Part shown: piece by piece, positions 10,495 through 53,631 of the stretch
How the letters are laid out: the number at the start of each line of letters is the position of its first letter
How positions within the stretch are numbered: position 1 is the stretch's first letter
Virus record (IMG/VR): IMGVR_UViG_3300037395_000062
Span: 1-64,000 of that record
Strand: one strand, 5' to 3'
DNA from: a virus
DNA length: 64,000 bases
Made by a program: the position numbers and the translations under genes
Notes under the pieces: model-generated
Database searches by the model: none
What the model was told of the DNA's origin: nothing
The model's input: only the letters and a program-made list of their open reading frames with translations

Positions 10495-10798
10495 TACGAC
10501 CCCCTGGATTTTGCATCGTCGATCACGATCTTCGCCGCAGCGGCCAGTTCAAGCGTGGAGTTTGCCCTACCCGCCGCATCTCCCTGTGCCGTGGCAAGAA
10601 GTGTATTCGTCTCGATCAACTTCTCCGTCTGGCCGTTCACCAGGTCATGCACATTCCGGATGCTTGCCTCGTTCTTGAAGCTCTGTGCGGCGGCTCGCTG
10701 ACTTTGAATCGCCGCACGCTGGCTCTGGATGTAGGTTAGAACCCCAATGGTCTGACCTACGCCGACAAAGAAAAGCGTGCCGATTTCGAAACCGGTCA
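10494..10798 (-). CDS. Single-TM lysis-associated protein (holin-like)
   Basis: N-terminal TM helix, coupled to the endolysin. Confidence 0.5.
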
Positions 10799-10953
10799 TC
10801 CGGGAAACAACCATCGAACCAGCGGTTCAAGGGCCACCACCCCGACTACCACACCAAACAGGAGAGCAGCGCCGACACAGCGCTTCAAATGCCTCTCGTG
10901 GCACCGTGCGCAATGGGTAAGCACGAGACCAACCCATCGGATGACTGAGCGCG

Positions 10954-11202
10954 TCATCGCGTGCTCAGCCATTTCAATATAGGGTCTATCCATCGGCTGA
11001 TAACCGCAACGAGGATGGCCGTGATGATCGTCGAGATCGTGCTCCCGAGAAAGCGCAACCAACCCCTGCGCCGCTCTCGTCGCCCCTCCTCTTCCTCTCT
11101 GCGGTGCCGCCAATAGAGCGCATCATCAGCCCCCCAGCCTGGAATTTCCAATGGATTAACGATGTGGTCACGGTGATGTCCCTCATTTTTATCTTCGGCC
11201 AT
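10954..11202 (-). CDS. Small membrane protein (holin-like)
   Basis: C-terminal TM helix; GGAG SD. Confidence 0.45.
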   Translation of the reverse strand: MAEDKNEGHHRDHIVNPLEIPGWGADDALYWRHRREEEEGRRERRRGWLRFLGSTISTIITAILVAVISRWIDPILKWLSTR

Positions 11203-11338: not shown

Positions 11339-13645
11339 TCATTTTGGCGTCCACCACGTAATGGTCACTTCCGCAGCGCCGCCTACACCGCCAGGACCGC
11401 CAGTGCCGCCGCACCCAGCGCCACCACCACCGGCGCCGCCACCTCCTACGCCGCCATTGCCGCCAGTGCCGCCTTGCGTGGTTCCAGCGCCCGCGCCAGA
11501 GCCGCCACCGCCGCCCCAGCCTGCCGCCGCCCAGCCGGTAGCACCGTTACCGCCCGTGGCTCCGCCAGCGCTTCCAGCAGTGGTCGTAATGCCGTTCACC
11601 GACGATACGGCCGAGCCACCAGCTTGGGGCGTTCCGGTCGTGCATCCACCACCAGCGCCGCCGCCGGTAGACGCGCTTACAGATGATGCGCCACCGCCAG
11701 CCGCTCCGACTGCTGACGACCCGCCGCCGCCGCTCGCTCCCATTGGTCCGGTCGCGTTTGACCCTCCGACACCTGTTCCGCCGGCGCCGCCATTGAAGTT
11801 TGCACCACCGCCGCCCGCAGCTCCGGTGGAACTCCCTCCACTGCCGATGTTTCCAGCGCCACCGCCGCCGCCGGAGGCTAGCGCCGCCGCGCCACCCGCG
11901 CCACCACCGCCAGCGTAGGCGATCATGTTGTTATCAAGGCCGGTGATCCCAAAAAATGCAGTCCCGCCAACCGACCCATTTGCGCCAGCCGCCGCCGTGC
12001 ACGGGGCATTGATCGTTATTGATGCCACACCAGATGTCATCGACGCTGGGATCGGAGCAGGCGTCAGCTTTACGCCGCCGCCGCCGCCGCCGCCGCCGCC
12101 GGAACCCGACACGCCGCCCGTCAAAGATGGACCACCGCCGCCGCAGCCGCCCTGGCCCCGTGCCGCGACCGTGAATACCGACCCAATCGGGGGCGGCCAG
12201 TAATAAGTCCCGGCCCCTGTAAAGGTGATCTGCCCGCTGGATGGCACGCCGTCGCTGATTGCAAGCGAACCGACATTCGAGCCTCCAGCCGATGCGAAAA
12301 ACTGCGCCAGCGTCATATCCATAACGGCCAGCTTCGTCACAAAGCCGCCCGTTGAAACCGACGTAGCATTGCTCGCCGCGCTGTAGGAAAAATAGATCTT
12401 GCCGCCGACTTCGACCCACCATGGGTCAGCGATCTGACCGACTCCCGTGTTGACCCCCTCATCAGAAGTCAGTCGGGCAAAAAACGGGGTCGTTTTAACA
12501 GGCGTCCACGCCGTGGCATTGAGTGTCGGCGCGCTGAACAAGTAAATGTCTTCTGGCACTGCACCGGACGTGCCAAGCGTGCCATTTGTGGTGGTGGCGT
12601 GCGCGCCGATATACCATAGGCCATTGGTAAAATAGGGAGATGTCGGCCCACCGATCGCTGCGTTTCCAACAGTGCCGCCGCCCCCGGCCGAGCTTATGAC
12701 TGGGTTGCTGACAGGTTGCGAGACGGTGGACATATCGGTCGACGTGAAGAGACCGATCCCTCCGATCCCGCCAACGCTGTTCTGGTAGCCTTCCATGAAG
12801 ATATAGGCAGTGCCGCCGACGAAAATCATCGACGTGTTAGTGACGTTTGTTGCGTCCCAAGTCGCACCGCCGCCCGGCGTGATGAACGCACTCTTCAAGA
12901 CGGAATAGTTACCATAGGCGTTCGCTGATGACAGGAGATCGATCTGCGTCCACCCGGTATTTGCCGCGAGCAGGTAGTAGGCGGTTCCCGTCACGGCCAG
13001 CGGGCCAGAGACTCCGGGGGAACCGCTTAAGGTATAGGTCCCCCCCGCACCGGTTCCACTTACTCTCGCCGTGATATAGTAGGTATTCGAAGTGATCCCG
13101 GTTCCGTTGATATATTGGCCGTTTGTCCATTGCCCCGTGACGGTCCCAGCCACCGTCAGCGTAGAACCGCTGATCGTGCACGCGGAGCACGTCGCGGTAT
13201 TGAGGGTGACAGAAGATGACCGATAGCCCGTGGCGATCGTCGCCGCTGCCTTGTAGGGCCAATGGATACCGTCAGTGCTTTCGAGATATTCCAGGCTTGG
13301 CGTTCCCGGTCCGGCCGTGCCGATCAAGTGCCAGCATGATGTGAATTGCGCGGGGACAAGATTGCAGCTTGTGTCCGGCGCCAGGATCGTTGCCTCTGCG
13401 ACCAACCCTCCCGCCGATCCCATCTCGTATGGCAGCGTCGGGGAATTGATGACGCCCTGGCGCTGGATCACTCCCTTGACCGGAGGCGGTCCCGCATCCC
13501 CCAACTGCCCAGCCGAGTTGAACCAGGCTGCGTCGCCGGGGGTGCCGGTGGGCAGGGGCGGCGGCGTATACCCACTTCCCTGCTGCGCCTGGGCGACGCC
13601 GCAGACGAGAAGAAAGAACGCTGCGAAGATCCTGATGGTGTTCAT
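11339..13645 (-). CDS. Signal-peptide-bearing protein with a glycoside-hydrolase-like beta-propeller and polyglycine-rich C-terminus (adhesin/fibre-like)
   Basis: MNTIRIFAAFFLLVCGVAQA signal; WD and IADPW propeller motifs; Gly-rich tail. Confidence 0.7.
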   Translation of the reverse strand: MNTIRIFAAFFLLVCGVAQAQQGSGYTPPPLPTGTPGDAAWFNSAGQLGDAGPPPVKGVIQRQGVINSPTLPYEMGSAGGLVAEATILAPDTSCNLVPAQFTSCWHLIGTAGPGTPSLEYLESTDGIHWPYKAAATIATGYRSSSVTLNTATCSACTISGSTLTVAGTVTGQWTNGQYINGTGITSNTYYITARVSGTGAGGTYTLSGSPGVSGPLAVTGTAYYLLAANTGWTQIDLLSSANAYGNYSVLKSAFITPGGGATWDATNVTNTSMIFVGGTAYIFMEGYQNSVGGIGGIGLFTSTDMSTVSQPVSNPVISSAGGGGTVGNAAIGGPTSPYFTNGLWYIGAHATTTNGTLGTSGAVPEDIYLFSAPTLNATAWTPVKTTPFFARLTSDEGVNTGVGQIADPWWVEVGGKIYFSYSAASNATSVSTGGFVTKLAVMDMTLAQFFASAGGSNVGSLAISDGVPSSGQITFTGAGTYYWPPPIGSVFTVAARGQGGCGGGGPSLTGGVSGSGGGGGGGGGVKLTPAPIPASMTSGVASITINAPCTAAAGANGSVGGTAFFGITGLDNNMIAYAGGGGAGGAAALASGGGGGAGNIGSGGSSTGAAGGGGANFNGGAGGTGVGGSNATGPMGASGGGGSSAVGAAGGGASSVSASTGGGAGGGCTTGTPQAGGSAVSSVNGITTTAGSAGGATGGNGATGWAAAGWGGGGGSGAGAGTTQGGTGGNGGVGGGGAGGGGAGCGGTGGPGGVGGAAEVTITWWTPK

Positions 13646-13653
13646 ACCGGACC

Positions 13654-14163
13654 TCAATTCGAGATCGAGAGAGTAGTGCCGAGCGGCGAATAGAATGACG
13701 GCACCGCCGCACTTCCAGTGATGTTCTTGGTGTCAGATGCTCCGGCCGCCAGCAGCTCACCGCCCGATGTCGCCGAACACGTGTTGGCCAACCAGCAGAC
13801 GTAGGTCGGGTTCATGCCGGTATTCAGCGCGAACAGCCGCGCGAAGGCGCCCGCCGCCGGGATCGAGCCCGCACTGATGGTGACGTTGGCGGTGATGAGC
13901 GTCGTGCTCGTCGCCGCTGCCAGTGTCATGGTGCCTTGGTAGGTCGTGGCTGGTGTAGTGACCGGAAATTGCGTTCCGCTCGGTACGGTCACGGGAACCG
14001 GCAACGGTACCTTCGGGTTGGCACCCTTCGGGATCGGCCCTGACGGTTCCGTGATCTGAATGCCGTTGTTCGGGTCGTACACGCCGGAATTCTGGGCATG
14101 CGCAGCATGCGATGTCACGGTTCCGGCCAGAAGCAGGAAGATTATGGCTAAGGTGCGCATCAT
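13654..14163 (-). CDS. Signal-peptide-bearing beta-rich protein
   Basis: MMRTLAIIFLLLAG...AHA signal; ATGA overlap with the upstream gene. Confidence 0.65.
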   Translation of the reverse strand: MMRTLAIIFLLLAGTVTSHAAHAQNSGVYDPNNGIQITEPSGPIPKGANPKVPLPVPVTVPSGTQFPVTTPATTYQGTMTLAAATSTTLITANVTISAGSIPAAGAFARLFALNTGMNPTYVCWLANTCSATSGGELLAAGASDTKNITGSAAVPSFYSPLGTTLSISN

Positions 14164-15410
14164 TGGATCACTCGAATGTTGTAGACCGAGATTGTCGGTG
14201 TTGCTGCGACGGCAGCGCACACCTTGACGGTCACGTTTCCAGCCGACGAAACATAAGCCGTCCAATAGATGCCATCGCCCGGATAGGTAACGGGACTTGC
14301 GGCCGCAACCATGGCTGTGGTGGCGTTTGGCACAGATTGTGTTGCCGATGCACACGCACCAGCAGCGAGCGCACTTCCGCCGATGTTGTTAGTCGTGCTT
14401 GTCAAAGCAAGCGCGATTGTCCCCGTCTGCGCGGGCAATATCCAGTTGTAGTTTGACGCCACTGCTGGTGGCTGGAGTTCCCCTGCCCCAGAGGTGGCGC
14501 CCGCCATTTGGATGTTCCCGGCATTCTGCCCCGCCTGGCCAAGCGTGATCAAGCCGTTGCTACTAGCCCGGATTATGTTGTTATTGCTGGAATTGATCAG
14601 TTGCAGCATCACGCTGCCGCTGCTGTTCGGCGATACGATGTGCACCTGATCGGTAGACACGCCAACACCGCCCACGAACAGATTCCCGGCCGTCGAAATG
14701 GAACCGTTTGGATCGCTATTCTGTAGACAATAATCGTTCGCGGGAGGCGACCCTGTGCCGCCGATCGCGGAACAATGATACGCTGTCCAGTCAGTCACGG
14801 AACCAGCCGCGCTGTTGTTGTTCACAAGCAGTGCGTTGAACCCGAGCACATTCCCCATAATGCCGGTCGGGTAATTGGTGCTGGCTGCTAGATATTGGGT
14901 GAAATTAGCGACCGTGCCAACATTTCCGAAGCTGGCTTCAAAGTCCTCATTGCCTCCGGCCTGGCTGTTGCATCCGGATTGGCACGTGTAGAACGCGTGG
15001 ATCACATTGACTTCGCTGTTGTCGATCCCCGGCCCATTCATGAACACCTGAGAGTTCATGTTTTCCCAGTAATTGGACGTATTCGTCGATGGGTTGAGCG
15101 TCACATAGAACTGATTCTGGCGATTGTCGGATGCAGCTGTGGCCAAATCAACCGCGCCCGTGAATTGTATGGCCGGCATCCCGTTCACCGGCAGCGCAAA
15201 CGTCGATCCGCCGATCTGATACCCTGTCGAGGCCGTGGTATTGATCCCGCCGCTATCGACAATACCGACCGTTGTCAGTTGTCCGGTCAGCGTGCCGCCG
15301 GCCAGCGGCAGATACGCGACGCTGCCGCTGGATCCGCCGGTCACCTGATCGGCGTTGGACGCGGATGCCGCGACGATGAGCAGCAGTGCCAGGAGAAGAC
15401 GACGCATCAT
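14160..15410 (-). CDS. Signal-peptide-bearing tail fibre-like protein
   Basis: MMRRLLLALLLIVAASASNA signal; YLPLAGGTLTG fibre motif. Confidence 0.7.
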   Translation of the reverse strand: MMRRLLLALLLIVAASASNADQVTGGSSGSVAYLPLAGGTLTGQLTTVGIVDSGGINTTASTGYQIGGSTFALPVNGMPAIQFTGAVDLATAASDNRQNQFYVTLNPSTNTSNYWENMNSQVFMNGPGIDNSEVNVIHAFYTCQSGCNSQAGGNEDFEASFGNVGTVANFTQYLAASTNYPTGIMGNVLGFNALLVNNNSAAGSVTDWTAYHCSAIGGTGSPPANDYCLQNSDPNGSISTAGNLFVGGVGVSTDQVHIVSPNSSGSVMLQLINSSNNNIIRASSNGLITLGQAGQNAGNIQMAGATSGAGELQPPAVASNYNWILPAQTGTIALALTSTTNNIGGSALAAGACASATQSVPNATTAMVAAASPVTYPGDGIYWTAYVSSAGNVTVKVCAAVAATPTISVYNIRVIQ

Positions 15411-15411
15411 G

Positions 15412-15912
15412 CTACTGCACCTGGCCGCTGAAGAATGCCGTGGCGGACGCGGTTTTTGTGAAGCATCCTGTCGAGCTGAACACTGTGGTTATGCCTGCCG
15501 AGAATAGCCAAGCAGCGGCACCCGGATCAGGAGACAGTCCGATCGTCTGGTTGGCGGGGACGTACAGGCATTTGACTGGCAAAACACTGCCATCGGACGG
15601 CGGCGTGGTTGCGTTGAACACCATCAGGTAGCCAGGCGTGGCACCGCTGGTCACGGCAAAGCCCAGGGCGAGACCTGCGGACGCTTTGAATACGTGGCTG
15701 GATTCGACGGACGTTGACACGATCGGTGTCGTCGAACTGTAGGCGAGCGAGGCTGGAAACGGGTTTACCGTCGAGAACTGATTGCCTTGATAGTCGGCAA
15801 CTCCAGCCATAAGGCCCGGCCATATGGGATAGCTCGTGGCCTTCGCTCCGGCGATGAACAGCAGGATCGCCGCCACCGTCCTCAACGCAACGCTTTTCGT
15901 TCGATCCGTCAC
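15412..15912 (-). CDS. Signal-peptide-bearing small beta-sandwich protein
   Basis: Hydrophobic N-terminus ending AKA; GYLMVFNATT motif. Confidence 0.65.
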   Translation of the reverse strand: MTDRTKSVALRTVAAILLFIAGAKATSYPIWPGLMAGVADYQGNQFSTVNPFPASLAYSSTTPIVSTSVESSHVFKASAGLALGFAVTSGATPGYLMVFNATTPPSDGSVLPVKCLYVPANQTIGLSPDPGAAAWLFSAGITTVFSSTGCFTKTASATAFFSGQVQ

Positions 15913-15922
15913 CTGCCGCCTC

Positions 15923-16564
15923 CTATCCGATGATCCAACTGAGAACCGTACCGCTGACCATGCCGCAGGTCGCCCACACGGCGTCCGTGGTGGTGAAGTT
16001 CGAGCCCGCTGGAGGCCACGACCCGAACGGCGGAATGATAGCGCTCGGCACCGATCCGCTGGCCGGCGCGGACGCGCCTCCGATTATCAACCGCACGGAA
16101 TCGATCTGCGACGTGTTGAACAACTGCAGCGCGTTGCGCGCACCGCTGGCAACGACGGCGGAGTAGGCACCCGAACCGAGCGACACGAAGCCGCTCGTCG
16201 TGGGACCTGCGTTGTTCGCCACGAACCCTGGGCCTGCCGCGAACTGCGACCCGACGACGATAGATACGCTGCCCGGCGGCACCACCACGATCTGCCCATT
16301 CAACGGCGTGAACGGCGCCTGCAATGTTCCCGGAGCCACGACGGCCGTCGTGCCGGCCTGGTCCTCCGTTATCCCGAAGCAGGTCAGCGTACCCCACGAG
16401 CCGGATACCGGCCCGAACGCGCAGTTCACGTTCGTCAACTGTACGCCACCGACGAAGGTGTCGAACGTCACCGGCTGACCGGCGTAGTTCGTCCCTCCGG
16501 GCGGCGTAACCACGACGCTGCCTGATATCGCCGTGCCGAGCTGCAGGTAGCCGTTGCTCGCCAT
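15923..16564 (-). CDS. Putative virion structural protein
   Basis: Gly/Ser/Val-rich ORF in the tail-appendage operon; ATG 16564. Confidence 0.6.
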   Translation of the reverse strand: MASNGYLQLGTAISGSVVVTPPGGTNYAGQPVTFDTFVGGVQLTNVNCAFGPVSGSWGTLTCFGITEDQAGTTAVVAPGTLQAPFTPLNGQIVVVPPGSVSIVVGSQFAAGPGFVANNAGPTTSGFVSLGSGAYSAVVASGARNALQLFNTSQIDSVRLIIGGASAPASGSVPSAIIPPFGSWPPAGSNFTTTDAVWATCGMVSGTVLSWIIG

Positions 16565-16568
16565 GCGA

Positions 16569-17024
16569 TCAGCCGTGATATATCTGATTGCCGCCGGCGA
16601 AATAGTAAGGCACGACGGTGCCGGTCGCCTGCGTGTAGGCCACACCGCTCGATCCACTGCCGATGATGCCGCTCACGGTCGGCGGATAGACCGACAGCCC
16701 GCTGACGCCGAAATTGCCAACGAAGACTGGATACGGAACCGCATTTGGCGGAGGCAGTTGACCTCCAGTACCCGATGCCACGGTAGAGAAAAACGCCCCT
16801 TGGGTCGTAATCGGCGTGGCGTTGCCTATGCCGCTTCCCGCCGCGGTCAAGCCGGACGCCACGGTGCCATAGCCAGCCGCACCCATCGCTCCCGACATCA
16901 CGGAAGCCATCGCTCCCTGGAAATTGTAACTTCGGCCGGGACCTGACTGCTGATCGAGGTTGGCAAAGAACTCGCCGGGATTCAGCAGCCCGAGCGGGAT
17001 GGACGGAGTCGAGGCTGAACCCAT
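16569..17024 (-). CDS. Putative virion structural protein
   Basis: ATG 17024 with CAGGAG SD; Gly/Ser-rich. Confidence 0.6.
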   Translation of the reverse strand: MGSASTPSIPLGLLNPGEFFANLDQQSGPGRSYNFQGAMASVMSGAMGAAGYGTVASGLTAAGSGIGNATPITTQGAFFSTVASGTGGQLPPPNAVPYPVFVGNFGVSGLSVYPPTVSGIIGSGSSGVAYTQATGTVVPYYFAGGNQIYHG

Positions 17025-17115
17025 CGGTGCGTCTCCTGACGGAAAGCCGCAGGCTACCCCGCGACGGATACGCTCCCCATGCCGGGACGTTTCGGTACGT
17101 GATAGCGTCGCGGAC

Positions 17116-18876
17116 ATGAGCGCTCCCGAATGGTTCTGGCCTCCGTCCGGCGCGACGGCGCGCGGCATCGCGCTGGCGCCGTTCGCATCCGGAATGGCGG
17201 TCGCGGACTGGACCGAGCCGGTACTGTGGCCCTATGAATCGGGAGCGCTCGGTGCCGCACTTCCGGTATCCGCCGGGCCGTACGGGTTCGCCGGCGCGGC
17301 CTCCGATACGTCCGGAGGATTGTGGTGCGTCACCTGGGACGGCGTCCTGTCGCACGTCAGCGGCGGTGCATCATCCGGCGCGGTATCGGCTACGATGCCT
17401 TCCGGCCAGATATACATCGGCTGCGCGTACGCGGCCGGCAGCGGCTTCGCGGTAGCCGCTTCGGGCAACGTCTACGCGTCAACCGGTACGTTGTTGGCTG
17501 CGTTTCCGCTTCCCGGGCGACCGATCGCCGCTTCCGGCGGCACTATCCTGTCGTGCATGTCCGTCTCCGGAATCGGCACGATGAACGCGGGCAACGGCGC
17601 CACCGGGTTCGTCGCCCTGCCGTCCGGCATGACGGTGATGTCGTGCATCGCGGCCGCATCCGGTTTCCCGCTCGCGGCCGCCGGCTGGGCGAACGCAGCG
17701 CCGCTGTCCGGCTGCGCCGCCGGAGCGCTCGATCCGCAGGATGCTTTATTCATGCTCGGTATCGGATCGGGGAGTGCCGTCCTGTGGTCGTCGCCCGGCA
17801 TATTCGCGGACGCGTGGGCGCAAATCCAGACCGTCACCGGCTTGGCATCGTTGTCCTCCGTATGCTGGAGGCCGGACGGCACGCAGGCCTTGGCAGTCAG
17901 TCCGGTATCCGGGCAGGTGCAGGTACTGCCGTTCACCGCAGGCGTATTGTCGGCGGGGCAGATCTTGTCCGTATCCGGCGCATGCTCCACAGCCATAGCG
18001 GGCGATTCCGTGCACGCATTGGTCGCCCAGTCGGGACAGGCGCAGGCGACGGCCTTGACCTACACTGGCAGCACATGGTCGACGACGACGGCGGTAACCG
18101 GGCTGACGGGCATCGTCGCGGTCGCACCGTACGGCGCAAGCGGTGCTGTCGCCGCCGTATCCGGTGGCATACGCTACCTCAACCTGTCCGTCGGGGCGTG
18201 GTCGCTCGGAGCGCTGGTGGCGGTTCCGTTCGTGCCGACCGCGCTTACCGTCGATACGTTCGGCCAGGTCTATGTCGCGGGCTCCGGGGCGGTCGCCATG
18301 GCGTCCGGTGCGTTCCTTCTAGCGAGCGGAACGTGGGCGGGTGCGGCACCTACCGCGATCGCGGTGCAGCAGGGTCGCATCGTCATGGCGGTACCGGGCG
18401 ACAGCCTGCTGCGCGTATTCGGCCTCTCGGCACCCGGCACGCTTTCCCAGCAGGCGCATACCGCGTTGTCGCTCGGCGCAAGCGTAGGGTTGGCGCTGTC
18501 GACGACCACGCTGTTCGTCGGCGGTTCGGGAGCCACCGAGACGTTCGGGTTTTCCGGCAGCGCCTACGCGCTGACGCCGGTGCGGTCCGGTTCCGTGGGA
18601 TTCTGGAGCGGATCATCCTGGTCGACGCTGGGACTCGGCGTCGGCCATCTGCCGTCCGCGATCGGTCTCGATGCCTCCGGGAGTGCATGGGTGACGACGA
18701 AACAGAACACGCTATGGCAGGTAAGTTCCGGCGCCGTCGCACTGTCGTCCGGGATCGTGTCGCAATATCCCGGGCAACCACAGACTGTGCCGATCTCGCC
18801 GTCTTCCGTGCTTGCCGGCGCCAGCGGGGTGTTCGTCGCCACTTCGATTCCCGGTGTTTTGGTCCAGGTGGCCTAA
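17116..18876 (+). CDS. Ser-Gly-rich beta-propeller-like baseplate-associated protein
   Basis: Propeller-like motifs (WRPDGTQALAV, IGLDASGSAWV); first gene of the + strand baseplate block. Confidence 0.65.
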   Translation: MSAPEWFWPPSGATARGIALAPFASGMAVADWTEPVLWPYESGALGAALPVSAGPYGFAGAASDTSGGLWCVTWDGVLSHVSGGASSGAVSATMPSGQIYIGCAYAAGSGFAVAASGNVYASTGTLLAAFPLPGRPIAASGGTILSCMSVSGIGTMNAGNGATGFVALPSGMTVMSCIAAASGFPLAAAGWANAAPLSGCAAGALDPQDALFMLGIGSGSAVLWSSPGIFADAWAQIQTVTGLASLSSVCWRPDGTQALAVSPVSGQVQVLPFTAGVLSAGQILSVSGACSTAIAGDSVHALVAQSGQAQATALTYTGSTWSTTTAVTGLTGIVAVAPYGASGAVAAVSGGIRYLNLSVGAWSLGALVAVPFVPTALTVDTFGQVYVAGSGAVAMASGAFLLASGTWAGAAPTAIAVQQGRIVMAVPGDSLLRVFGLSAPGTLSQQAHTALSLGASVGLALSTTTLFVGGSGATETFGFSGSAYALTPVRSGSVGFWSGSSWSTLGLGVGHLPSAIGLDASGSAWVTTKQNTLWQVSSGAVALSSGIVSQYPGQPQTVPISPSSVLAGASGVFVATSIPGVLVQVA

Positions 18877-18879
18877 GCA

Positions 18880-19557
18880 GTGACCCAGACGTTCCGCACT
18901 ATCCCTGTCGGACTCGGCACGCAGCCCGCCGTCTATCAGCTATCGATCCGCGCGCCCGGACAGACCTTCGCCGAACTCAGCACGTATACCTTTCCGTTGT
19001 CGCCGTCGCGGTTGCGCATGGCCCGTTCGTCGTTGTCGAGTTTCGTCGATACGCAGGGGTCGGCCTCATCGCAGGGCGTCACCCGGGTGATGGACGTCTA
19101 CGGCCTGGCGCCGCCGATCTATACCATCGAAGGGACGACCGGCTGGGACCGGCACATGTCTGACGGCTATGTGCTGACCGGGCTGCAGTCGATGCAACTG
19201 CTCGCGGCTTTCCTCGCCCAGTACGCCACGTTGAACCAGCAGCAGCGCGCGAGCGGCAACCCGAACTACTATACCCTGGAGTTCTACGACTATTTCGGCG
19301 ATAATTTTTGGCAGGTAGAACCGATCGGACCCCAGATATTCAACCAGAGCAACGACCGGCCGACGTTGATCTACTACCGGTTCAGTTGGGCAGCCGTGAA
19401 GCCGGCCGGCGTTCCGGTGCTCGGCGTCGTCGACGCGCTGGCCGGCCTGGTCTCGTCGTCCGCGGCCCAGGCTGCGATCAACGCGGCGCAGACGCTAGGC
19501 GCCTTCACCACCGCCTATGCGCCGTTCGGACTCTCCGGCACGTCGGTATTGCCGTAG
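18880..19557 (+). CDS. Baseplate/tail tube initiator-like protein
   Basis: YTFPLSP, IEGTTG, F.QS..RP.L.YY pattern; position. Confidence 0.55.
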   Translation: MTQTFRTIPVGLGTQPAVYQLSIRAPGQTFAELSTYTFPLSPSRLRMARSSLSSFVDTQGSASSQGVTRVMDVYGLAPPIYTIEGTTGWDRHMSDGYVLTGLQSMQLLAAFLAQYATLNQQQRASGNPNYYTLEFYDYFGDNFWQVEPIGPQIFNQSNDRPTLIYYRFSWAAVKPAGVPVLGVVDALAGLVSSSAAQAAINAAQTLGAFTTAYAPFGLSGTSVLP

Positions 19558-20993
19558 TGTCGTACGAACCACCATTCGCGGGCTATCCCGGCACGGTATT
19601 CGCCACCTGCTGGCAATCGGCGGCGTGGCTCTCGACGCTGCTCGCGGGCGGCTCCGCGCCGATCGCGAGCATCGCCAACGGCGCGACGGCGGCGTTCCGG
19701 ACGTTCATGAATGGCGCCGACGCGGTAGCAGCATGGCAGGCGGCCAACGCGTTCGCTCAGGAGCAGATAAACCTGGCTGCGGTCGACGCGCTGCCGCTCG
19801 GCTTGGATCCAGCCACCCAGGCATATTTCACCGCTCGGTTGGGTTCCGTCGCGGCGGCCGCGAGCGGGCTTGCAGTGCTGCCGCCGCAGGTCAGCCCGTT
19901 CGATGCGGTGGCGCTGCTGAGCGCGGGACAGCCGGCCGTTCCGGACTCGGGCTACCTCGAGTGGTGCGCCGGATTCGCGGCCGAGACCCCGCCGTCCGGA
20001 CTGGTGTCGCCGGGATCGCTCGTGACGTATGCGACCGGTGCGGCGACGGCATGGTTGACGGTGACCAACGCGGTGCGCATGCTGCAGGGCGCGTCCTTGA
20101 CCCAGGCGTTCGATACCGCCGCGCGCCAGTTCCGGGTATCGTCCGTGGTGGCGACCGGACTGGCTTCTATGACCGCTGGCGGCTTTACTGAAACGGACAT
20201 CCCGGCACTGTGGAACGGCGCCGTGGCGATGCCGTCGCTTCTGCTGGACGCCGGATCGCTGACGTCATCGCCGGCCTTCCTCGGCAACCAGCAGGGCGGA
20301 GCCATCCGCGTCGCCCTGCGCACGCTGGCACTGCAGACCGCCTACCTCGTGCTGTCGCTGCGGTCGACGATAGCGTCCGGCAGCGTAGCCACCGCTTCGC
20401 TGCGACGCAACGAATCGCTGATGGATCTTGCCGCCCGTGCGGCTGGCGGGTTCGAGGCTTGGTCCTCCATCGCGGCGGTCAACAACATCCAGCCGCCATA
20501 CCCCGGACCGACGAACCAGGCCGTGGCGGCGTCCGGTACGGTGCTGCTGATGCCCGGCAGCGTCGTCGCTCCGTCCGGCAGCGCGGCACCGACATACGCA
20601 GCCAACGTGCTCGGCACCGACTACGACTTCGGACCTATAAACGGTCCGCAACCGCCATGGCTGGGTGACATATCCCTGATCACGGGGTACGCCAACTTCG
20701 CACGCGCGCTGGGGCGACGCCTCCAAACTACGCTCGGTACGCTGGTCTATCATCCGGGCTACGGCAGCCGCATTCCGCTGGAGGTCGGGGCCATCCAAGG
20801 CAGCGACGAGGCGCGGCGGCTCGCGGCGTTCGGCAGGGCGGCGTTGGCTGCCGATCCCAGGACGGCGAGCGTAGTGAGCGCCACGGCGTCGGTGCGGCCG
20901 GGATTCCTGGCAACCTTCTACGGCACCGTGGTACCTGTAGGACCCGGCGCTGTTCCCGTATCCGTCAACGAGGTCATCAACCCCTTGCCGTAG
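19557..20993 (+). CDS. Baseplate protein with LysM-like and gp25-like domains
   Basis: ESLMDLAAR..WSSIAAVNNI (LysM-like); RLQTTLGTLVYHPGYGS..ADPR (gp25-like). Confidence 0.7.
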   Translation: MSYEPPFAGYPGTVFATCWQSAAWLSTLLAGGSAPIASIANGATAAFRTFMNGADAVAAWQAANAFAQEQINLAAVDALPLGLDPATQAYFTARLGSVAAAASGLAVLPPQVSPFDAVALLSAGQPAVPDSGYLEWCAGFAAETPPSGLVSPGSLVTYATGAATAWLTVTNAVRMLQGASLTQAFDTAARQFRVSSVVATGLASMTAGGFTETDIPALWNGAVAMPSLLLDAGSLTSSPAFLGNQQGGAIRVALRTLALQTAYLVLSLRSTIASGSVATASLRRNESLMDLAARAAGGFEAWSSIAAVNNIQPPYPGPTNQAVAASGTVLLMPGSVVAPSGSAAPTYAANVLGTDYDFGPINGPQPPWLGDISLITGYANFARALGRRLQTTLGTLVYHPGYGSRIPLEVGAIQGSDEARRLAAFGRAALAADPRTASVVSATASVRPGFLATFYGTVVPVGPGAVPVSVNEVINPLP

Positions 20994-21002
20994 GAGAGAC
21001 GC

Positions 21003-22217
21003 TTGTCCAGCAGCCTGACGCCGACAGTAGCGGCCGCACCGACGACGGTACAGACGACGGCCAACATGGTCGCGCTGATGGCTGCCCAGACGAACGTCCC
21101 CACCGACTACAACCCGGGCTCGAACGTACGCACGCTCGACGAGGCACTGGGCTCCGTGATCGAGATCCAGGCGGTATCCGATCAGGCGTTGAGCTTCCAG
21201 GCTTTGGCCTACGGGGCGATGTCGCTGTTCGGAGTGCTGTCTGCGCAGGCAACGTTCGCCACGGGCACCGTGACCATGGCCACTTCGTTCCCGGTGGTTT
21301 CGGCGCAGCCGACCACCCAAGCCGTGTTGATCCCGTCAGGCACGCTGGTGCAGACCGCTGGCAGTATCCAGTTCGCGACCATCGGCCAAGCGACTCTGGC
21401 GTCCGGCACGTCGAGCGTCTCTGTCGGCGTCATAGCCTCCTTGGCCGGCAGCGCCGGAAACGTCGCCGCGTCGGCGATCACCGGCCTTCCAATCACGTCC
21501 ATCGGCTATCCGCTCTACGTCGCCAACGGCGCACCTACCGGCGGTGGAAACGATGCCGGCACGCAATCGTCCGCGCTCGCGCAGTTCACCGCCCGGCAGG
21601 CCTCGCTTGGGTTGTCGTCGCCTGTGGCCGTCGCCAACTCACCGATCGGCGTCACCGTCAGCGGTACCGGCGAGATGGTGATGTTCGCCGCTGCCTTCGA
21701 GCCCTGGCTCGCGGCAGGCAGCGGCATGGGATCCGGCACCGCCGGATGGATACTCTACATCGACAACGGTACAGGAGGCGCCAGCAGCAGCCTGATCGCA
21801 GCCGTAGACGCATGGATAACCGGCAACGCGTCCGCCGGGCAGAGTGGGTTTCGTCCGGTCGGGGTGCCGTATCAGGTGCTCGGCGTTACGCCGGTATACG
21901 CCTCGGTCGCGGCATCCGGATCCCTAATCCCTGGCTTGTTCTCCTCCGGTACGGTTCCCGCCGCCGCCGCCAGCGGGATTCAAGCATACTTCAACGCGCT
22001 CGGCATATCCGCACCGTCCCCCGGAGGCTCTACGGGGCTCAACGCGGCAAGCCAGCCACAGATCGCGGCGCGGGTAGCGGATGCCGGTGCCGGTTCGTAC
22101 GCGTCCCTGGCTGTGACGCTGACCTATTCCGCGGCATCCGGCACACCGGTGCCGATCGTCAGCGGCGGTGTCGGCACGCGTGTCATACTAAACAGCCTGA
22201 CCGTCAACATACAGTAG
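21003..22217 (+). CDS. Baseplate wedge J-like protein
   Basis: TDYNPGSNVRTL, ATFATGTVT, IPSGTLV, GSAGNV, TGGGND. Confidence 0.85.
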   Translation: MSSSLTPTVAAAPTTVQTTANMVALMAAQTNVPTDYNPGSNVRTLDEALGSVIEIQAVSDQALSFQALAYGAMSLFGVLSAQATFATGTVTMATSFPVVSAQPTTQAVLIPSGTLVQTAGSIQFATIGQATLASGTSSVSVGVIASLAGSAGNVAASAITGLPITSIGYPLYVANGAPTGGGNDAGTQSSALAQFTARQASLGLSSPVAVANSPIGVTVSGTGEMVMFAAAFEPWLAAGSGMGSGTAGWILYIDNGTGGASSSLIAAVDAWITGNASAGQSGFRPVGVPYQVLGVTPVYASVAASGSLIPGLFSSGTVPAAAASGIQAYFNALGISAPSPGGSTGLNAASQPQIAARVADAGAGSYASLAVTLTYSAASGTPVPIVSGGVGTRVILNSLTVNIQ

Positions 22218-22221
22218 CAAT

Positions 22222-23235
22222 ATGAATTTCGCCGCCGTCCTCGCGCAGCTAAGCGACCTGCCTGCCACGTTCATGCCGTCGGGAAACCCGTACGGACAGT
22301 TCGTCAACGCGCTCGCGGCGGCCGAGACTTTGTACACCGCAGGCGCCGATGCGACGGTGCAGCAGGTGATCGCCTTCCAGAATGCGATCGACGGGTGGAT
22401 CGACCTGTGGGGCTTGATGTTCGAAGTACCTCGCAACCAAAGCGAGGGGAACATACCGTACTCCCTGCGCATTGCCGAAACCGTATTGGCATGGGTCGGC
22501 ACGCTGCCCGCCATCCAGATATGGCTCAACCTGTTCGCGCCCGGCGGCAGCGTCACGGAGAATGCCTCAGGCAGCGGCTATGTCATAACCCTGCCGTCGT
22601 TTCTCACGCAGGCGCAGATCACCGCGTTCGTGGCATCTCTGGGGCGGATACGGCCGGTCGGCGTGCCTTTTACGGTCCTGTCTTCCCGCTCCGGCGTGTA
22701 CCTCGGTAGCGAGGCGTTTCTTGGCGATGGGGTGGACTACGGTTCGTACCTGACCGGTGGTATATCTCCGCTGTCGCTCGGTCTCGGTGCGACGACCTGC
22801 AGTGCACAACCACTGGTGCCTGATCTCTATCTTGTCGATCCCAATCTCGCCCAGCCCGGTCTACTGTCGCGCGGGCTGCAGGGTATTTGGCCGCCTTTAA
22901 ATCAACCGGTACAGCTACGTAACAATCAGTCCGTGCCGGTGCAGATAACCGGGCTGGCGAATAACGGCGGCGTGCTGCAGGTGCTGAACCTGACTGGTTG
23001 GCTGCCGTCCGGAACCGGACTGCCGGCTGGCGGTTTGTGGAGTCCAGACTTGGGAGGTCTAGCCTACGTCGTGCCTGGTGCCACACCCAATCCGTCCGCG
23101 CCGCCTGTCATATTCGGGCTCATAACGGCCGCGGCGCTGCTGGCACTCGGAGGTGCCAACCTGCCTACCACCGATCCAGGCAACGCGCTACAGATATGGA
23201 ACAACGAGGGATTCCTATGCGTATCATTGGGTTGA
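22222..23235 (+). CDS. Baseplate wedge (gpI-like) protein
   Basis: A.DGWIDLWG...R.QSE...Y..RI, IRPVGV. Confidence 0.7.
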   Translation: MNFAAVLAQLSDLPATFMPSGNPYGQFVNALAAAETLYTAGADATVQQVIAFQNAIDGWIDLWGLMFEVPRNQSEGNIPYSLRIAETVLAWVGTLPAIQIWLNLFAPGGSVTENASGSGYVITLPSFLTQAQITAFVASLGRIRPVGVPFTVLSSRSGVYLGSEAFLGDGVDYGSYLTGGISPLSLGLGATTCSAQPLVPDLYLVDPNLAQPGLLSRGLQGIWPPLNQPVQLRNNQSVPVQITGLANNGGVLQVLNLTGWLPSGTGLPAGGLWSPDLGGLAYVVPGATPNPSAPPVIFGLITAAALLALGGANLPTTDPGNALQIWNNEGFLCVSLG

Positions 23236-25715
23236 TCTTTTGCTTTTTGATCTGCTCGTCGAGCGGCGCGTGGGCAGAAGGCCTGTGCTCCAGCACAAAC
23301 CTGTCGGCGTGTCCGAACGGTCCCTTCAACACCGTGGTGGCGAATACGGTGACCGCCGGTGTTTCACCATCGACTGTTACCGTTCCCTCGATCCAAACGA
23401 AAACGCTTCAAGTCATGCTGCAGCGGCTAGTCGGGCATGTTTCGGTTCTGGAGTACGGAGCGGATCCGCTCGGCAATATCGACTCCACGGCGGCGATTCA
23501 AGGTGCCATCAACGCTGCCGCCGGCACGTATCCGAGTTTGGGTGGATCAGTCGACCTATACCCCGGAAACTACAAGATCAGTTCGCCCGGGCTTATCATA
23601 GGCAACGGCGGCGGCAGCGTGGGATCACCCTCGACCGTCAGCGGCATCAAGCTGGTCTGCGTAGCGGCATGGGCCGGCGGCGGAAACAACGATAACGCGT
23701 GCAATCTCAATTCGAGCTACGCCGGCCCAGCGATAACGGTCAATGGCCCCATTCAGGGATGGGGTCTTGAGAATATCGGGATTGTCGCGAACACCACCAG
23801 CACATCGGCGGGGGGACTTCTCGTCAACTCAGGACAGTGGGGTAAGGTTGACGGTTTGTTGGTCTCTGATTTCTACGATTACGGCATAAAGTTGACGACA
23901 TCGGGCGCCACGCCGAGCGACCAGAACGTCTTTCGCCAGATCAACATCGTCACGCCGACTGGCGGAACTACGGCAGTCGGCCTCTACATCGGATGCCCGC
24001 AAGGCGGGGGATGTGAGGGCAGCTTCAGCGATAGCTTCGACGACACGTTCATCGCCGTCAACAACCCTGGGGCGACCGGGCTTTATGCTGGATCGTCGGA
24101 CAGCGAGAGGTTCCGCAATCTAACGTTCGCCAACAGTGCAGCGGGCAACAAGGACATCGTCTTCGATTACTCGCAGGCGAACAATAACGCGTGGCCGTCC
24201 AACTACTTACTCTATGGGCTGGAGACCGGCAACGGCAACGTGGGGGCAATAACTAACATCGGGACGCCTCCCTACACCTTAAACGAGCACAATATCGTCT
24301 ATGCATTCTCGCGGACTAACGGTGCGCCATATCCGGTGCTGCCGAACCTGATCCTCGCAGACCTCATCGGCAAGCAGGGCGTCGATCTGCGTGAGTTCGG
24401 CGACGTTCCGGACGACACTACCGATAACTCGACAGCGATGCAGAACGCGCTGACGTGGGCGGCGACCAGCGGCGGGACCCTGCTAATCCCACCGGGGACG
24501 ACCTACTACGCCGTCGGGCCGACCGCCACGTTGCCTGCTAACGCTACCGTTACGTTCCAGGGGCAGGGTCCAAACCTGTCGCTCCTGCGCCCCGCGTCCG
24601 GTCAGAACGGCCTGACTCTGCTCTCCGGAACGGCGCAGTCGTCGATCCACGTTGACGGCATCGGGTTTCTGGCGAGCGGCGCCGGGGCCGGAGACGCGAT
24701 CCACTTCACGGCCAACGGCGCCACGGTGTTTTCCCAGACCACGGTGATTAGCAACGCGACATTCCGGGGCGCGGACGGCTACGGCGCCTCCGATTACTGG
24801 GCCAATGGCTTTTACACCGACCTCGTCAGCAACATTAATTTCCTGAACGATACATTTTACGGCACCAATGGAACATACCATGGTACCGGGATAAATCTCG
24901 CGGGCGGGACTGGCCTCGGGGTGATATACAACGTATCGGCTTCCAACTTTCAGGCGCTGAATAAAGGCATAAATCTGGGAAACAACATTCAGGGCTTAAC
25001 TATTTCCCAGGGCAATTTCACGCCAGATAACTACGGTGTCTATGTCGGACCCGGCCTGAGTGGTCTCGATCAGATTTCGGTCGTCGCGTCACAGTTTAAC
25101 CAAAACACCGTCGGCATTGATCTACTGTCCCCCGTGGTGAACGTCGTTCTTTCCGGTGGAAACCTCTTTTCGGTCAATGCCACCAACGAGACCGCAATCT
25201 ACATTGCCGAAGCCGATCAGTGCTCGATCACCGGCAACGCGATTAACGGAATCAATTTCACGATCCCGTCCAGCGCAATCGGTATCGACATCGAAGGTGT
25301 CGAAGGCACGAGAGGTTGCGCGATCTCGGGCAACAGCATGAGTCTCTTGGATACGGCGGTTAAACTCGGCTCAGGTACGGCATGGAATAAGGTCTCCGGT
25401 AATCAGTGGGGACAGAACAATACAAAAATAACCTCGGCTAGCATAAACAACGAAATTTCCGGCCTAGGCCTTCTCTCGACCACCGTCACCAACGCGGTTA
25501 ACGATGAATCGGGGGGCACCTTGCTAACCGTTGGCTCCACCTCAGGCTTTGTCACTGGGGAGTGGGTCATGGTAGCCGGCGTCGGAGGTATTCCGATCTT
25601 AAGCGCGGCGGGTTTAGCCCAGATCGTGGTGTCGGACTCGTCGCATCTTGACCTCGTAAACACCGGATTTGGGGGGACCTATACGTCCGGCGGCGTGGTC
25701 TGGGCGGTGCCGTGA
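23217..25715 (+). CDS. Signal-peptide-bearing tailspike/depolymerase with two pectate-lyase-like beta-helix modules
   Basis: VSVLEYGADPLGNIDSTAAIQ and VDLREFG..DNSTAMQNA caps; MRIIGLIFCFLICSSSGAWA signal. Confidence 0.75.
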   Translation: MRIIGLIFCFLICSSSGAWAEGLCSSTNLSACPNGPFNTVVANTVTAGVSPSTVTVPSIQTKTLQVMLQRLVGHVSVLEYGADPLGNIDSTAAIQGAINAAAGTYPSLGGSVDLYPGNYKISSPGLIIGNGGGSVGSPSTVSGIKLVCVAAWAGGGNNDNACNLNSSYAGPAITVNGPIQGWGLENIGIVANTTSTSAGGLLVNSGQWGKVDGLLVSDFYDYGIKLTTSGATPSDQNVFRQINIVTPTGGTTAVGLYIGCPQGGGCEGSFSDSFDDTFIAVNNPGATGLYAGSSDSERFRNLTFANSAAGNKDIVFDYSQANNNAWPSNYLLYGLETGNGNVGAITNIGTPPYTLNEHNIVYAFSRTNGAPYPVLPNLILADLIGKQGVDLREFGDVPDDTTDNSTAMQNALTWAATSGGTLLIPPGTTYYAVGPTATLPANATVTFQGQGPNLSLLRPASGQNGLTLLSGTAQSSIHVDGIGFLASGAGAGDAIHFTANGATVFSQTTVISNATFRGADGYGASDYWANGFYTDLVSNINFLNDTFYGTNGTYHGTGINLAGGTGLGVIYNVSASNFQALNKGINLGNNIQGLTISQGNFTPDNYGVYVGPGLSGLDQISVVASQFNQNTVGIDLLSPVVNVVLSGGNLFSVNATNETAIYIAEADQCSITGNAINGINFTIPSSAIGIDIEGVEGTRGCAISGNSMSLLDTAVKLGSGTAWNKVSGNQWGQNNTKITSASINNEISGLGLLSTTVTNAVNDESGGTLLTVGSTSGFVTGEWVMVAGVGGIPILSAAGLAQIVVSDSSHLDLVNTGFGGTYTSGGVVWAVP

Positions 25716-25743
25716 TCCAAACAGACGCAAGGAACGTAAGCAT

Positions 25744-27054
25744 ATGAACTACCCCAACTTCACCGATCCGCAGTTCCTTGACGCCAACGCGCCAGGCGGC
25801 TTGAATCAGGCCTTCGGCACGGTATCAGGTGCTTTCGCTTTGATGGGTAGCGGAGTGTGGGCCGCACCCGGCCTGCTTGCTCCCGATTCAATGACTTTAT
25901 CGTTCGCGGGCATGACCGCTACGGTAGGCCTCCCGCTTCCGTGGAGCCTGGTATGGTCCGGCGGTGCCGTCGTCAACGCACACGGATCCCAGACCGGCAT
26001 AGACACGCAAAGCTATTCGGTGTCGTTCGCCTCTCTGGTACCCGCCAGCGGATCGCTGACCGCCTATCTCGCGGCGTTCGTCAATTCGATACAGCAAAAC
26101 CCGTTTCCGATCCCAGGACCTCCACCCGGTCATCCGGCCTATGATCCCGCCTTCGTGCCGGTGGTCGGCTACGCCACCAACGTGTACAGCGTGTCGTTGA
26201 CCGCGGTCACCGGCGGAATCGACAACGTGAACACGTTCGAACTGTTCCGCACCACGTTGACCGCTGGACAGACGAACATTTCCGCCGTCAACACCGTCGG
26301 TCAGGTGCGTGCAACACAGCAGTTGGCGAAGGCCCAGATCCGCGTATCGACAGGTGGCCTGCTTACCGCTTCGCAGGCGTACTACGTGATATCGCCGACC
26401 GTATCCGGACTCACCCACACGCTGCCGCCAGCGAGCGGCGCGGGTGGACTGATCTACACGCTGGTCAATCCGACCGCGGTGTGGACGATAGCCGCTACAG
26501 GAACGGACAGGATCGCGGGCTCCGGCGTCGCCAATGGTCTGGCCAGTTTGACCGTACCTGTATCCGGTGCGATGCAGCTATGGGCCAACGCAGCGTCCGG
26601 CACCTGGAATATCATCGGTGCATCGCCAGTCCCGGCGGTAAATCTACTGCCGCTTAACAATACATGGACAGGTAACAATACTTTCAATAATTCGGTTGCT
26701 GTTTCAGGTGCGACATCCGCGAATCATGCAGTCAACCTAGGGCAGTTTGTGTCGGAGTGGACCGGAACCAATGACGGCTATGAGACGCTTCCCGATAATA
26801 CGATTGATCTCACTTACTTCGCTGTTGCACCGTATAACGGTACAGGTTTTTTAACGACGAACATAACACTACCAGATGGCTTGTTTCCGAATCAAATACT
26901 CGATGCTTCTGTGTGCTTCAATGGAAATACACCTCCCCTGAACGTAGCGATCAGCGTGCAACCTTCCACGCGAGTATCGGTGAACGTTACCACAAACTCA
27001 TCCGGCGGTGTCGGTGGCAATGCCGGAATCACTCTACGTATGCGCGGTAACTAG
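25744..27054 (+). CDS. Tail fibre protein
   Basis: NNTWTGNNTF, ATSANHAVNLGQ, gp53-like C-terminus; no signal peptide. Confidence 0.7.
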   Translation: MNYPNFTDPQFLDANAPGGLNQAFGTVSGAFALMGSGVWAAPGLLAPDSMTLSFAGMTATVGLPLPWSLVWSGGAVVNAHGSQTGIDTQSYSVSFASLVPASGSLTAYLAAFVNSIQQNPFPIPGPPPGHPAYDPAFVPVVGYATNVYSVSLTAVTGGIDNVNTFELFRTTLTAGQTNISAVNTVGQVRATQQLAKAQIRVSTGGLLTASQAYYVISPTVSGLTHTLPPASGAGGLIYTLVNPTAVWTIAATGTDRIAGSGVANGLASLTVPVSGAMQLWANAASGTWNIIGASPVPAVNLLPLNNTWTGNNTFNNSVAVSGATSANHAVNLGQFVSEWTGTNDGYETLPDNTIDLTYFAVAPYNGTGFLTTNITLPDGLFPNQILDASVCFNGNTPPLNVAISVQPSTRVSVNVTTNSSGGVGGNAGITLRMRGN

Positions 27055-34341: not shown

Positions 34342-34342
34342 C

Positions 34343-42446: not shown

Positions 42447-42476
42447 GTCGGTTTCGGTCCTTCTCTATCCGTTCCG

Positions 42477-53290: not shown

Positions 53291-53631
53291 GGCGCTACCA
53301 TCGCTAGAGCGACCATTGTAGATACAATCCAACGGCTAGAAAAATGGCGAATATAACTACGCCAACCGTAAGACCACCTAAGATTCCCCGAAGGAAGTTT
53401 CCATTGCCCGCATGGTGTTTGCGCCGTGGAACCATCAGCATCCGATCATGTCCTCCAGCCTGCCGTAGCGTTTCTCGACCTCTGCGACGAAGCGTTCGGC
53501 ATCGGAGAAGGCGGCCTTTACCTGATCGTCGCTCCGCGATTCCGCGTTAGCGAACAGCAGCGCGGCCATGGCAACAACCGCGATATCCCGCGGTTTAGGT
53601 TCAGGCATCAGAGTTGCCTCTGTTTGCGGTA

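Follow-up and report, generated by a model that had tools for sequence, protein, structure and literature searches.

To our knowledge, the textbook account of tailed-phage assembly is wholly cytoplasmic, with fibres and spikes that carry no export signals. The subject of this report is a set of five fibre- or spike-like genes, designated g1 to g5, in the first 64 kb (the window, that is, the whole stretch of DNA that was analysed) of the 94,109-bp IMG/VR record IMGVR_UViG_3300037395_000062, each of which encodes a protein with a predicted Sec signal and an even number of cysteines in its mature chain. Phage proteins of other kinds are known to use the same pathway. Llp of T5, Cor of phi80, T1 and N15, and Lom and Bor of lambda are Sec-exported, are encoded beside receptor-binding genes, act in the envelope and are not part of the virion; they are small lipoproteins or outer-membrane proteins. 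Among late phage proteins, Sec-exported and signal-arrest-release (SAR) endolysins rely on the Sec system of the host before lysis.

Fibre-like proteins outside the cytoplasm have been described in bacteria. The MAT fibres of Bdellovibrio bacteriovorus are signal-bearing, have phage tail-fibre or tailspike architecture with variable glycan-binding tips and are displayed outside the cytoplasm; all share a beta-rich domain of approximately 130 amino acids behind the signal, and in many of them the C-terminal end is an S74 chaperone-protease (PMC10769870). WceF of Pantoea stewartii is an exported trimeric tailspike-like beta-helix that cuts the cell's own exopolysaccharide (PMC7949094). Phages of Porphyromonas gingivalis carry signal-peptide genes of unknown function, in which cleavage by signal peptidase I exposes glutamine, the 'Q rule' (Matrishin et al. 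2023, PMC10367356). In full-text searches of the literature, no report of Sec signals on the fibres or spikes of tailed phages was found, and the Tunturi virus paper mentions neither signals nor fibres; precedent for a signal-bearing phage fibre exists only as a database note on gp49 of phage Bcep781.

The five open reading frames (ORFs) are present with the N-termini that had been described in a sequence-only reading of this DNA: g1 (11339-13645, minus strand, 768 amino acids), g2 (13654-14163, minus strand, 169 amino acids), g3 (14160-15410, minus strand, 416 amino acids), g4 (15412-15912, minus strand, 166 amino acids) and g5 (23217-25715, plus strand, 832 amino acids). Each begins with a short basic n-region, followed by an h-region of 10-17 residues rich in leucine, isoleucine, phenylalanine and alanine and by a small-x-small site, with cleavage predicted (at the slash) as ..GVAQA/QQ in g1 (between about residues 20 and 21), ..HAAHA/QN in g2, ..ASASNA/DQ in g3, ..AGAKA/TS in g4 and ..SGAWA/EG in g5. 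Signals were called by a rule that requires a positive n-region, an uncharged h-region of 8-18 residues and small residues at positions -1 and -3, all within about 15-38 residues of the start. All five proteins pass (score 5.0-5.8), and two fibre-like proteins of the same phage (25744-27054 and the gp80-like 15923-16564) fail. Among 489 six-frame ORFs of at least 70 amino acids in the 94-kb genome, the detector fires on nine, namely g1-g5, a lipoprotein-like ORF, a four-cysteine ORF and two antisense artefacts; g1-g5 are five of the seven credible signal-bearing ORFs. Its background rate is 5.7% of 477 other ORFs in related viral loci. Because the detector is so sparing both in this genome and in the related loci, the clustering of signals is not attributable to chance, which was rejected as an explanation.

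The assigned starts appear sound. A Shine-Dalgarno motif precedes g1 (GAGG), g4 (AGGAGG) and g5, the starts of g2 and g3 overlap the stop of the preceding gene (ATGA at the g2 start and g3 stop), and no in-frame downstream start in any of the five genes has a Shine-Dalgarno motif. Mis-called starts were rejected on the strength of these motifs or couplings at the upstream starts and of the signals kept in homologues. An in-frame ATG at 23196, seven codons upstream of the g5 start, would give a longer n-region (MEQRGIP..) and a deeper overlap with the preceding gene; the signal prediction is the same from 23196 or 23217. Other export and anchoring classes were also looked for. Of the twin-arginine translocation (Tat) motif S/T-R-R-x-F-L-K, only the RR of g3 (MMRRLLL..) was found, within a four-residue n-region before a very hydrophobic leucine/isoleucine core, and RR is absent from g1, g2, g4 and g5. 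No lipobox of the form [LVI][ASTVI][GAS]C was found in g1-g5 (the ..FLIC.. of g5 has isoleucine at -1), nor any SAR domain, the cores being rich in leucine, isoleucine and phenylalanine and followed by AxA-type sites.

The mature chains of g1 to g5 contain 8, 2, 6, 2 and 8 cysteines, mostly in close pairs, compared with one in the signal-less fibre-like protein 25744-27054, exactly as first counted. The pairs are at residues 123/129 in g2, 143/147, 213/228 and 353/398 in g3, 115/150 in g4, and 24/32, 148/162, 260/266 and 669/701 in g5. Cysteine content is 1.2-1.4% in the five proteins, near the genome median of 1.4% and several times that of the virion core proteins.

The signals are kept across hundreds of distant homologues in which the residues after the signal are not conserved. 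A search of 5.8 billion proteins yielded 35 homologues of g3, about 28 of which begin with an obvious signal, including proteins of Burkholderia gladioli, Methylobacterium and Ramlibacter. The C-terminal domain of g3 was found in 51 viral contigs and in 32 bacterial genome loci, the latter mostly of Acidobacteriota; among the viral members, 31 satisfy the strict rule, and a signal is visible by eye in about six others. In Acidobacteriota genomes the same domain also ends very large signal-bearing proteins with a cell-surface-like start. The g4 family comprises 37 viral loci (L094-L130), with a strict signal in 34, a visible signal in one and truncation by contig ends in two, and its mature cysteine counts are even except in one member. 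Members of this family are phage-borne small proteins with a mature domain of about 110 amino acids, one conserved cysteine pair and a signal in every complete member; the gene is usually followed by another signal-bearing gene, and its position in the genome varies. For g5, a word-based homologue search returned only g5 itself, and an exhaustive search gave 1034 representative relatives; among the best 149 of these, a strict signal was called in 68 and a lax one in 18, and the other 63 lack a signal. The residue at +1 after the predicted site is glutamine in 46-63% of each family, a position to which the rule is blind. This preference resembles the 'Q rule' of Bacteroidota, yet many of the sequences are high in GC and some belong to Acidobacteriota or Proteobacteria.

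Presence of the signal also co-varies with paired cysteines. In the C-terminal domain family of g3, 81 of 85 signal-bearing members have exactly two cysteines in the last 85 residues. When the family was counted as clusters at 75% identity, there were 33 clusters with signal and pair, two with signal but no pair, six with a pair but no signal (mostly fragments or sequences with doubtful starts) and six with neither (Fisher p = 0.0018). Complete signal-less members have classical fibre N-termini; the complete signal-less proteins of the L013-15/L017 group and L040/P0035 have no cysteine at all, and three other signal-less members (L042, L049 and L052) have one each. The g1 family presents the same picture on a smaller scale, for its signal-bearing member P0040 retains the g1 cysteine positions, and all eight are replaced in the signal-less P0039. 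No such co-variation was found in the g5 family, in which the cysteine pairs of g5 itself are not conserved.

Because the signals are conserved, because signal and cysteine pair vary together and because glutamine is favoured at +1, export, cleavage and disulfide bonding constitute the best reading of these data, and it is very probable that g1-g5 are exported and folded oxidatively outside the cytoplasm. To that extent the sequence-only reading, which had proposed oxidative folding in the periplasm, is borne out. It had gone on to suggest incorporation into the virion at or after lysis, and several of the results below point in the opposite direction; its other suggestion, of secreted exopolysaccharide depolymerases or receptor blockers, appears to fit better. 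Cleavage, disulfide bonds, non-virion status, glycan substrates and timing are all things that we infer.

The architecture of the five proteins is diverse. Behind its signal, g1 has a proline-rich linker of 40 amino acids, a body of about 420 amino acids and a glycine-rich C-terminal third, and two metagenomic proteins are alignable with it, starting at its residue 61, at 42-44% identity; no close relatives were found in viral contigs. A profile of g1 and two homologues gave hits to a GH43 enzyme (4qqs), a glycoside hydrolase (5ta7) and a GH32 enzyme (3r4y), at E 0.16-0.93 and covering one blade. The propeller resembling glycoside hydrolases that had been proposed for g1 is therefore retained as a weak similarity to GH43 and GH32 that these E values and the AlphaFold2 model (predicted local distance difference test, pLDDT, 47) leave unconfirmed at the level of fold. 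Likewise, at pLDDT 47 the fold of the proposed polyglycine adhesin-like tail was not substantiated. The nearest ESM Atlas clusters to g2 are virus-only hypothetical proteins of 130-150 amino acids with a score of only 0.90, and a word search of viral contigs found no relatives of g2; g4 scores 0.93-0.95 to virus-only clusters. In g3, the fibre motif YLPLAGGTLTG is present at residues 33-43, as reported, ahead of a middle part rich in beta structure; a sharply conserved domain of roughly 80 amino acids (residues 335-416, containing Cys353 and Cys398) closes the protein.

After the signal of g5 come about 50 amino acids with one cysteine pair, two probable pectate-lyase-type beta-helix modules (44-380 and 386-750), homologues of which also occur separately, and a C-terminal part. 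The pectate-lyase match of g5, to PF12708 (E 1.8e-5, 25.1 bits), falls slightly below the cut-off of 27, and homologues pass (P0120, 58 bits). The gene also matches phrog_2234, a tail spike (3.8e-9), and a precomputed Pfam list gives PF12708 as well. Otherwise family libraries were nearly silent. Pfam contains no family for g1-g4 and PF12708 alone for g5, and no S74 domain was detected in g1-g4; NCBIfam, Pfam and PHROGs have no model for g1, g2, g4 or the C-terminal domain of g3; and no particle-binding anchor domain from Pfam, PHROG or NCBIfam was found in any of the five. AlphaFold2 models were poor (pLDDT 51 for g3 and 47 for the N-terminal part of g1), and Foldseek returned nothing at E of 1e-3 or less. 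Paralogy among g1-g5, the fibres and the baseplate proteins was considered and rejected, the best E value in an all-against-all BLASTP comparison being 0.04.

The genes stand among late genes on both strands. A baseplate module occupies 18880-23235 on the plus strand (PHROG matches phrog_1011, phrog_975, phrog_6 and phrog_7378) and consists of genes for a virion structural protein (18880-19557), a baseplate protein (19557-20993), a J-like wedge protein (21003-22217) and an I-like baseplate protein (22222-23235); g5 follows directly, with a 19-nucleotide overlap with the I-like gene. The operon ends with 25744-27054 (plus strand, 436 amino acids, one cysteine), a candidate true tail fibre on the grounds of position and composition, for which there is no Pfam or PHROG match and no signal by the rule-based detector. 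A second signal-less fibre-like gene, 15923-16564 (minus strand), is the first gene, or nearly so, of the minus-strand operon running into g4-g1 and has a weak, below-cut-off match (E 1.9e-5) to PF23140 (podophage GP4 fibre I gp80). Immediately downstream of g1 is the lysis cassette (9958-11202, minus strand), consisting of a GH108-type endolysin (9958-10494, minus strand; phrog_315, 1.5e-33), a 106-amino-acid i-spanin-like protein with an N-terminal transmembrane segment and a long polar tail (10494-10814, minus strand) and an 82-amino-acid membrane protein with a C-terminal transmembrane segment (10954-11202, minus strand). The last two, whose genes separate g1 from the endolysin gene, have no family match and were assigned from sequence features; their presence suggests that the host is diderm.

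The five proteins g1-g5 can be read as exported, non-virion proteins, free or envelope-bound, that bind or cut glycans as accessories and are released at lysis, a reading to which we assign an even chance. It is favoured over a virion role because the phage has signal-less fibres of its own, because the signal of g1 replaces a fibre-type N-terminus and because the counterpart in a relative is a predicted lipoprotein. The second of these points comes from the signal-less P0039, which has a fibre-type N-terminus of 90 amino acids exactly where g1 has its signal and proline-rich linker; by this alignment the signal of g1 takes the place of an anchor-like part and does not precede one. The third comes from G004, a distantly related 95-kb myovirus that shares baseplate, sheath and portal homologues with this phage, in which the member of the g3-domain family in the corresponding slot has a canonical lipobox (..MLAAC). 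The spacer between the signal and the beta-helix of g5, only about 50 amino acids long, was also counted in favour of non-virion status. Genes g4-g1 lie immediately upstream of the lysis cassette, and genes of the g4 family occur at varied module borders (next to terminase, tail, fibre-assembly or HNH genes), as morons do. Two further observations were placed on this side: a Nitrospirillum locus, described below, in which two such genes have no recognised virion gene within 8 kb, and the cultured phage Bcep781, which encodes a signal-less fibre (gp31) as well as a signal-bearing beta-helix protein (gp49).

Under this reading, the five proteins would pass through the host Sec translocon, be cut by signal peptidase I and fold in the periplasm, where the host Dsb system would form the disulfide bonds (no DsbA or thioredoxin-like gene was found in the phage genome). 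They would be left out of particle assembly in the cytoplasm and would build up in the envelope as glycan-binding or glycan-cutting accessory proteins, with g5 as a double beta-helix of depolymerase type, g1 as a possible propeller hydrolase, g3 as a protein with a lectin-like tip and g2 and g4 as small partners. They might act on the envelope or exopolysaccharide from the periplasmic side or, as stable enzymes let out when the cell bursts, remove the polysaccharide that surrounds it. The outcome would be easier release and spread of progeny and destruction of receptors on debris, with adsorption left to the signal-less fibres.

Several points weigh against this reading. The signal calls come from our own fixed heuristic and not from SignalP, and the periplasm is deduced solely from the spanin-like gene and the GH108-type endolysin of the phage. 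No catalytic residues or substrates were identified. In the g5 family, cysteine percentage and the length of the N-terminal extension are alike with and without a signal. All five genes lie within late structural operons in which genes overlap, and they have no promoter or terminator of their own, and g5 occupies the classical fibre slot, overlapping the I-like baseplate gene. In G004 and L045, nearly all the large distal-tail candidates are signal-bearing. Some homologues have a signal directly before the start motif of signal-less fibres: ..KISxLP.. follows the signal in P0168, P0179, P0036 and L034-37 and stands in the signal-less P0120 and P0150, so that cleavage would recreate an ordinary fibre N-terminus.

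The operon, slot and motif observations speak for a different explanation, in which g1-g5 are exported, cleaved and disulfide-bonded in the same way but serve as true receptor-binding parts, which attach to the completed baseplate once holin lesions or lysis bring the contents of periplasm and cytoplasm together. We regard it as doubtful, though with a real chance of being right. The layout in G004 is the same as here, with J-like and I-like genes followed by a 719-amino-acid member of the g3-domain family, a 1393-amino-acid protein with tail-collar-fibre repeats and a 197-amino-acid protein, all signal-bearing; the 719- and 1393-amino-acid proteins are fibre-like, and the only ORFs without a signal in that stretch are of about 296 amino acids. 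In L008, L044 and L045, internal-virion or tail genes are followed by three to seven signal-bearing genes in a row. Late docking is physically possible, on the precedent of T4, the long fibres of which attach to finished particles in vitro. Set against this are the signal-less fibre candidates of the phage, the position of the g1 signal in place of a fibre-type N-terminus and not before one, the predicted lipoprotein in G004, which is hard to square with a free fibre, and the rapid dilution with which docking after lysis would have to compete. In its full form this explanation would have part of the host-recognition apparatus Sec-exported, disulfide-bonded, furnished with a pyroglutamyl-type N-terminus, matured in the periplasm and added to particles built in the cytoplasm only when lysis breaches the inner membrane, in this phage, many uncultured relatives and perhaps cultured Bcep781-like phages; we hold that form to be doubtful as well. 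A separate observation concerns Geomonas sp. Red32 (L077:5933-8228), in which a 108-amino-acid ORF that begins like a classical tail fibre overlaps, at its end, the start of a 656-amino-acid signal-bearing family member, near a Mu-type transposase-like ORF; the pair may represent one fibre divided between an anchor that stays in the cytoplasm and a distal part that is exported.

A further possibility is that the proteins stay in the envelope of the infected cell, where they attach to or trim the receptor glycan used by the phage itself, thereby masking the receptor; such proteins would block superinfection and the loss of progeny on debris, as Llp of T5 and Cor do, and their genes would stand beside receptor-binding genes, as llp and cor do. 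The lipobox of the G004 member suits this idea, as does the attachment of the g3 C-terminal domain to large cell-surface-like proteins in Acidobacteriota. So does a Nitrospirillum locus in which two such genes lie beside integrase-like and primase-like ORFs with no virion gene recognised within 8 kb, the neighbours there being read from their N-termini alone without comparison with family libraries. We nevertheless consider it unlikely: g1-g5 have neither a lipobox nor a membrane anchor that would survive cleavage, five large proteins including a double beta-helix far exceed known exclusion systems, and no lysogeny genes were noticed in the window. Least probable is that the hydrophobic N-termini are uncleaved anchors, assembly elements or mis-called starts of fibres that fold in the cytoplasm in the ordinary way, which would agree with the usual cytoplasmic location of tailed-phage virion proteins and with a cysteine content no higher than the genome median, but would leave unexplained the small-x-small sites and un-SAR-like cores of all five proteins, the Shine-Dalgarno or coupling support for their starts and lack of it downstream, the conservation of signals but not of the residues after them in hundreds of distant homologues, the co-variation of signal and cysteine pair in two families and the enrichment of glutamine at +1.

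The record, which CheckV rates as complete, is that of a lytic-type myovirus, of which g1-g5 are genuine late genes. On the minus strand the window encodes a tail hub with a lysin domain (27064-28773), a tape-measure-like protein (28790-31210), the sheath (32545-34347), the major head protein (40521-42464), the portal (51548-53335) and the large terminase (56149-58158), and ARAGORN detected 22 tRNA genes. No close cultured relatives were found by megablast of the region or by tblastn of g3, g4 and g5 against 50,697 phage records, and the best matches of the large terminase among phage records are only 28-31% identical. As to the host, the large terminase gave one weak match among 201 genomes of the class that holds an Acidobacteriaceae metagenome-assembled genome, and the capsid protein was not found in four candidate records. 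Scans for promoters and terminators gave no excess over shuffled sequences and no sign of independent moron transcription of g1-g5.

Where the two tail operons diverge, long ORFs on opposite strands overlap (16569-17168, minus strand, and 16960-18876, plus strand), with plausible starts at a methionine codon at 17027 on the minus strand and another at 17113 on the plus strand; ORF 16569-17027 lies upstream of 15923-16564. Third-position GC is 0.64-0.75 in the signal-bearing genes and the neighbouring fibre (11339-16000 and 23217-27054) and 0.8-0.9 in the core head and tail genes, which is consistent with more recent acquisition or exchange. Two small ORFs elsewhere on the minus strand also have export-type N-termini: 3008-3487 encodes 159 amino acids with a lipoprotein-type signal (..VAA/C) and no family match, and may be an o-spanin or an exclusion lipoprotein; 5469-5834 encodes 121 amino acids with a Sec signal (..VASA/Q) and four mature cysteines, has a third-position GC of 0.50 and lies beside the tRNA array.

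On comparative evidence, fibre- and spike-like late proteins of this phage are exported and disulfide-bonded, and the same trait is found in many uncultured phages of soil and freshwater and in a cultured Burkholderia phage. The class of signal-bearing fibre-like phage proteins is real, widespread and essentially undescribed in print. Should its members act as free enzymes or lectins, phages that infect polysaccharide-rich soil bacteria possess a dedicated set of secreted tools for leaving the cell and spreading, from which stable depolymerases with disulfide bonds might also be obtained; should they end up on the virion, a step has to be added to the assembly pathway of tailed phages, a two-compartment route undescribed for these phages. 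In either case, annotation pipelines that label such genes 'tail fibre' hide a distinct class, and predictions of host range from receptor-binding proteins would be misled.

Among the known systems, the MAT fibres differ from g1-g5 in being encoded in the chromosome of a predator, whereas g1-g5 are phage-borne, with no Pfam family for g1-g4 and PF12708 alone for g5. WceF serves as a working model for g5, but WceF is Tat-exported and belongs to a bacterial exopolysaccharide operon, and the available part of that account describes no paired-cysteine pattern (PMC7949094). Llp, Cor, Lom and Bor are not known to have a fibre, beta-helix or lectin-like architecture or to occur five at a time. The signal-bearing genes of P. 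gingivalis phages share with the families described here the glutamine at +1 (46-63% of each family in the present case); they come, however, from prophages of Bacteroidota and were read as outer-membrane modifiers, tail fibres and spikes being unmentioned (PMC10367356). The likeness to exported endolysins is closest in G004, in which the signal-bearing fibre-like genes are followed by a GH108 endolysin with a cleavable-looking Sec signal (L024:14504-15130); the endolysin of this window has no signal, and with their cleavable AxA sites and strongly hydrophobic cores g1-g5 differ from the glycine/alanine-rich SAR domains.

A cultured analogue was reached through the Burkholderia homologue P0013, with which tblastn identified the virulent myophages Bcep781, Bcep43, Bcep1 and BcepNY3 (genus Naesvirus). 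In GenBank, gp49 of Bcep781 (NP_705672.2) bears the note 'possible tail fiber; possible signal peptide domain'. It has a clear signal (..PAFA/QF), followed by ..QFAPGQVLTAAQLN..YVPLAGGTLTGPLT, a beta-helix and many cysteines, so that, like g3, it has a fibre motif (..YVPLAGGTLTGPLT) after the signal. The similarity of gp49 to g3 and g5 is at the level of motifs only (E 0.004-0.009), and the link between them is P0013, which combines the N-terminus of gp49 with the C-terminal domain of g3. Bcep781 has one such protein, known from a database note, and the present phage has five. In Bcep781 the gene adjoins baseplate wedge genes, with orthologues in Bcep43, Bcep1 and BcepNY3, and a fibre without a signal, gp31, is encoded by Bcep781 in the classical slot ahead of the holin. 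Cultured analogues such as gp49 make the question of where these proteins act directly testable.

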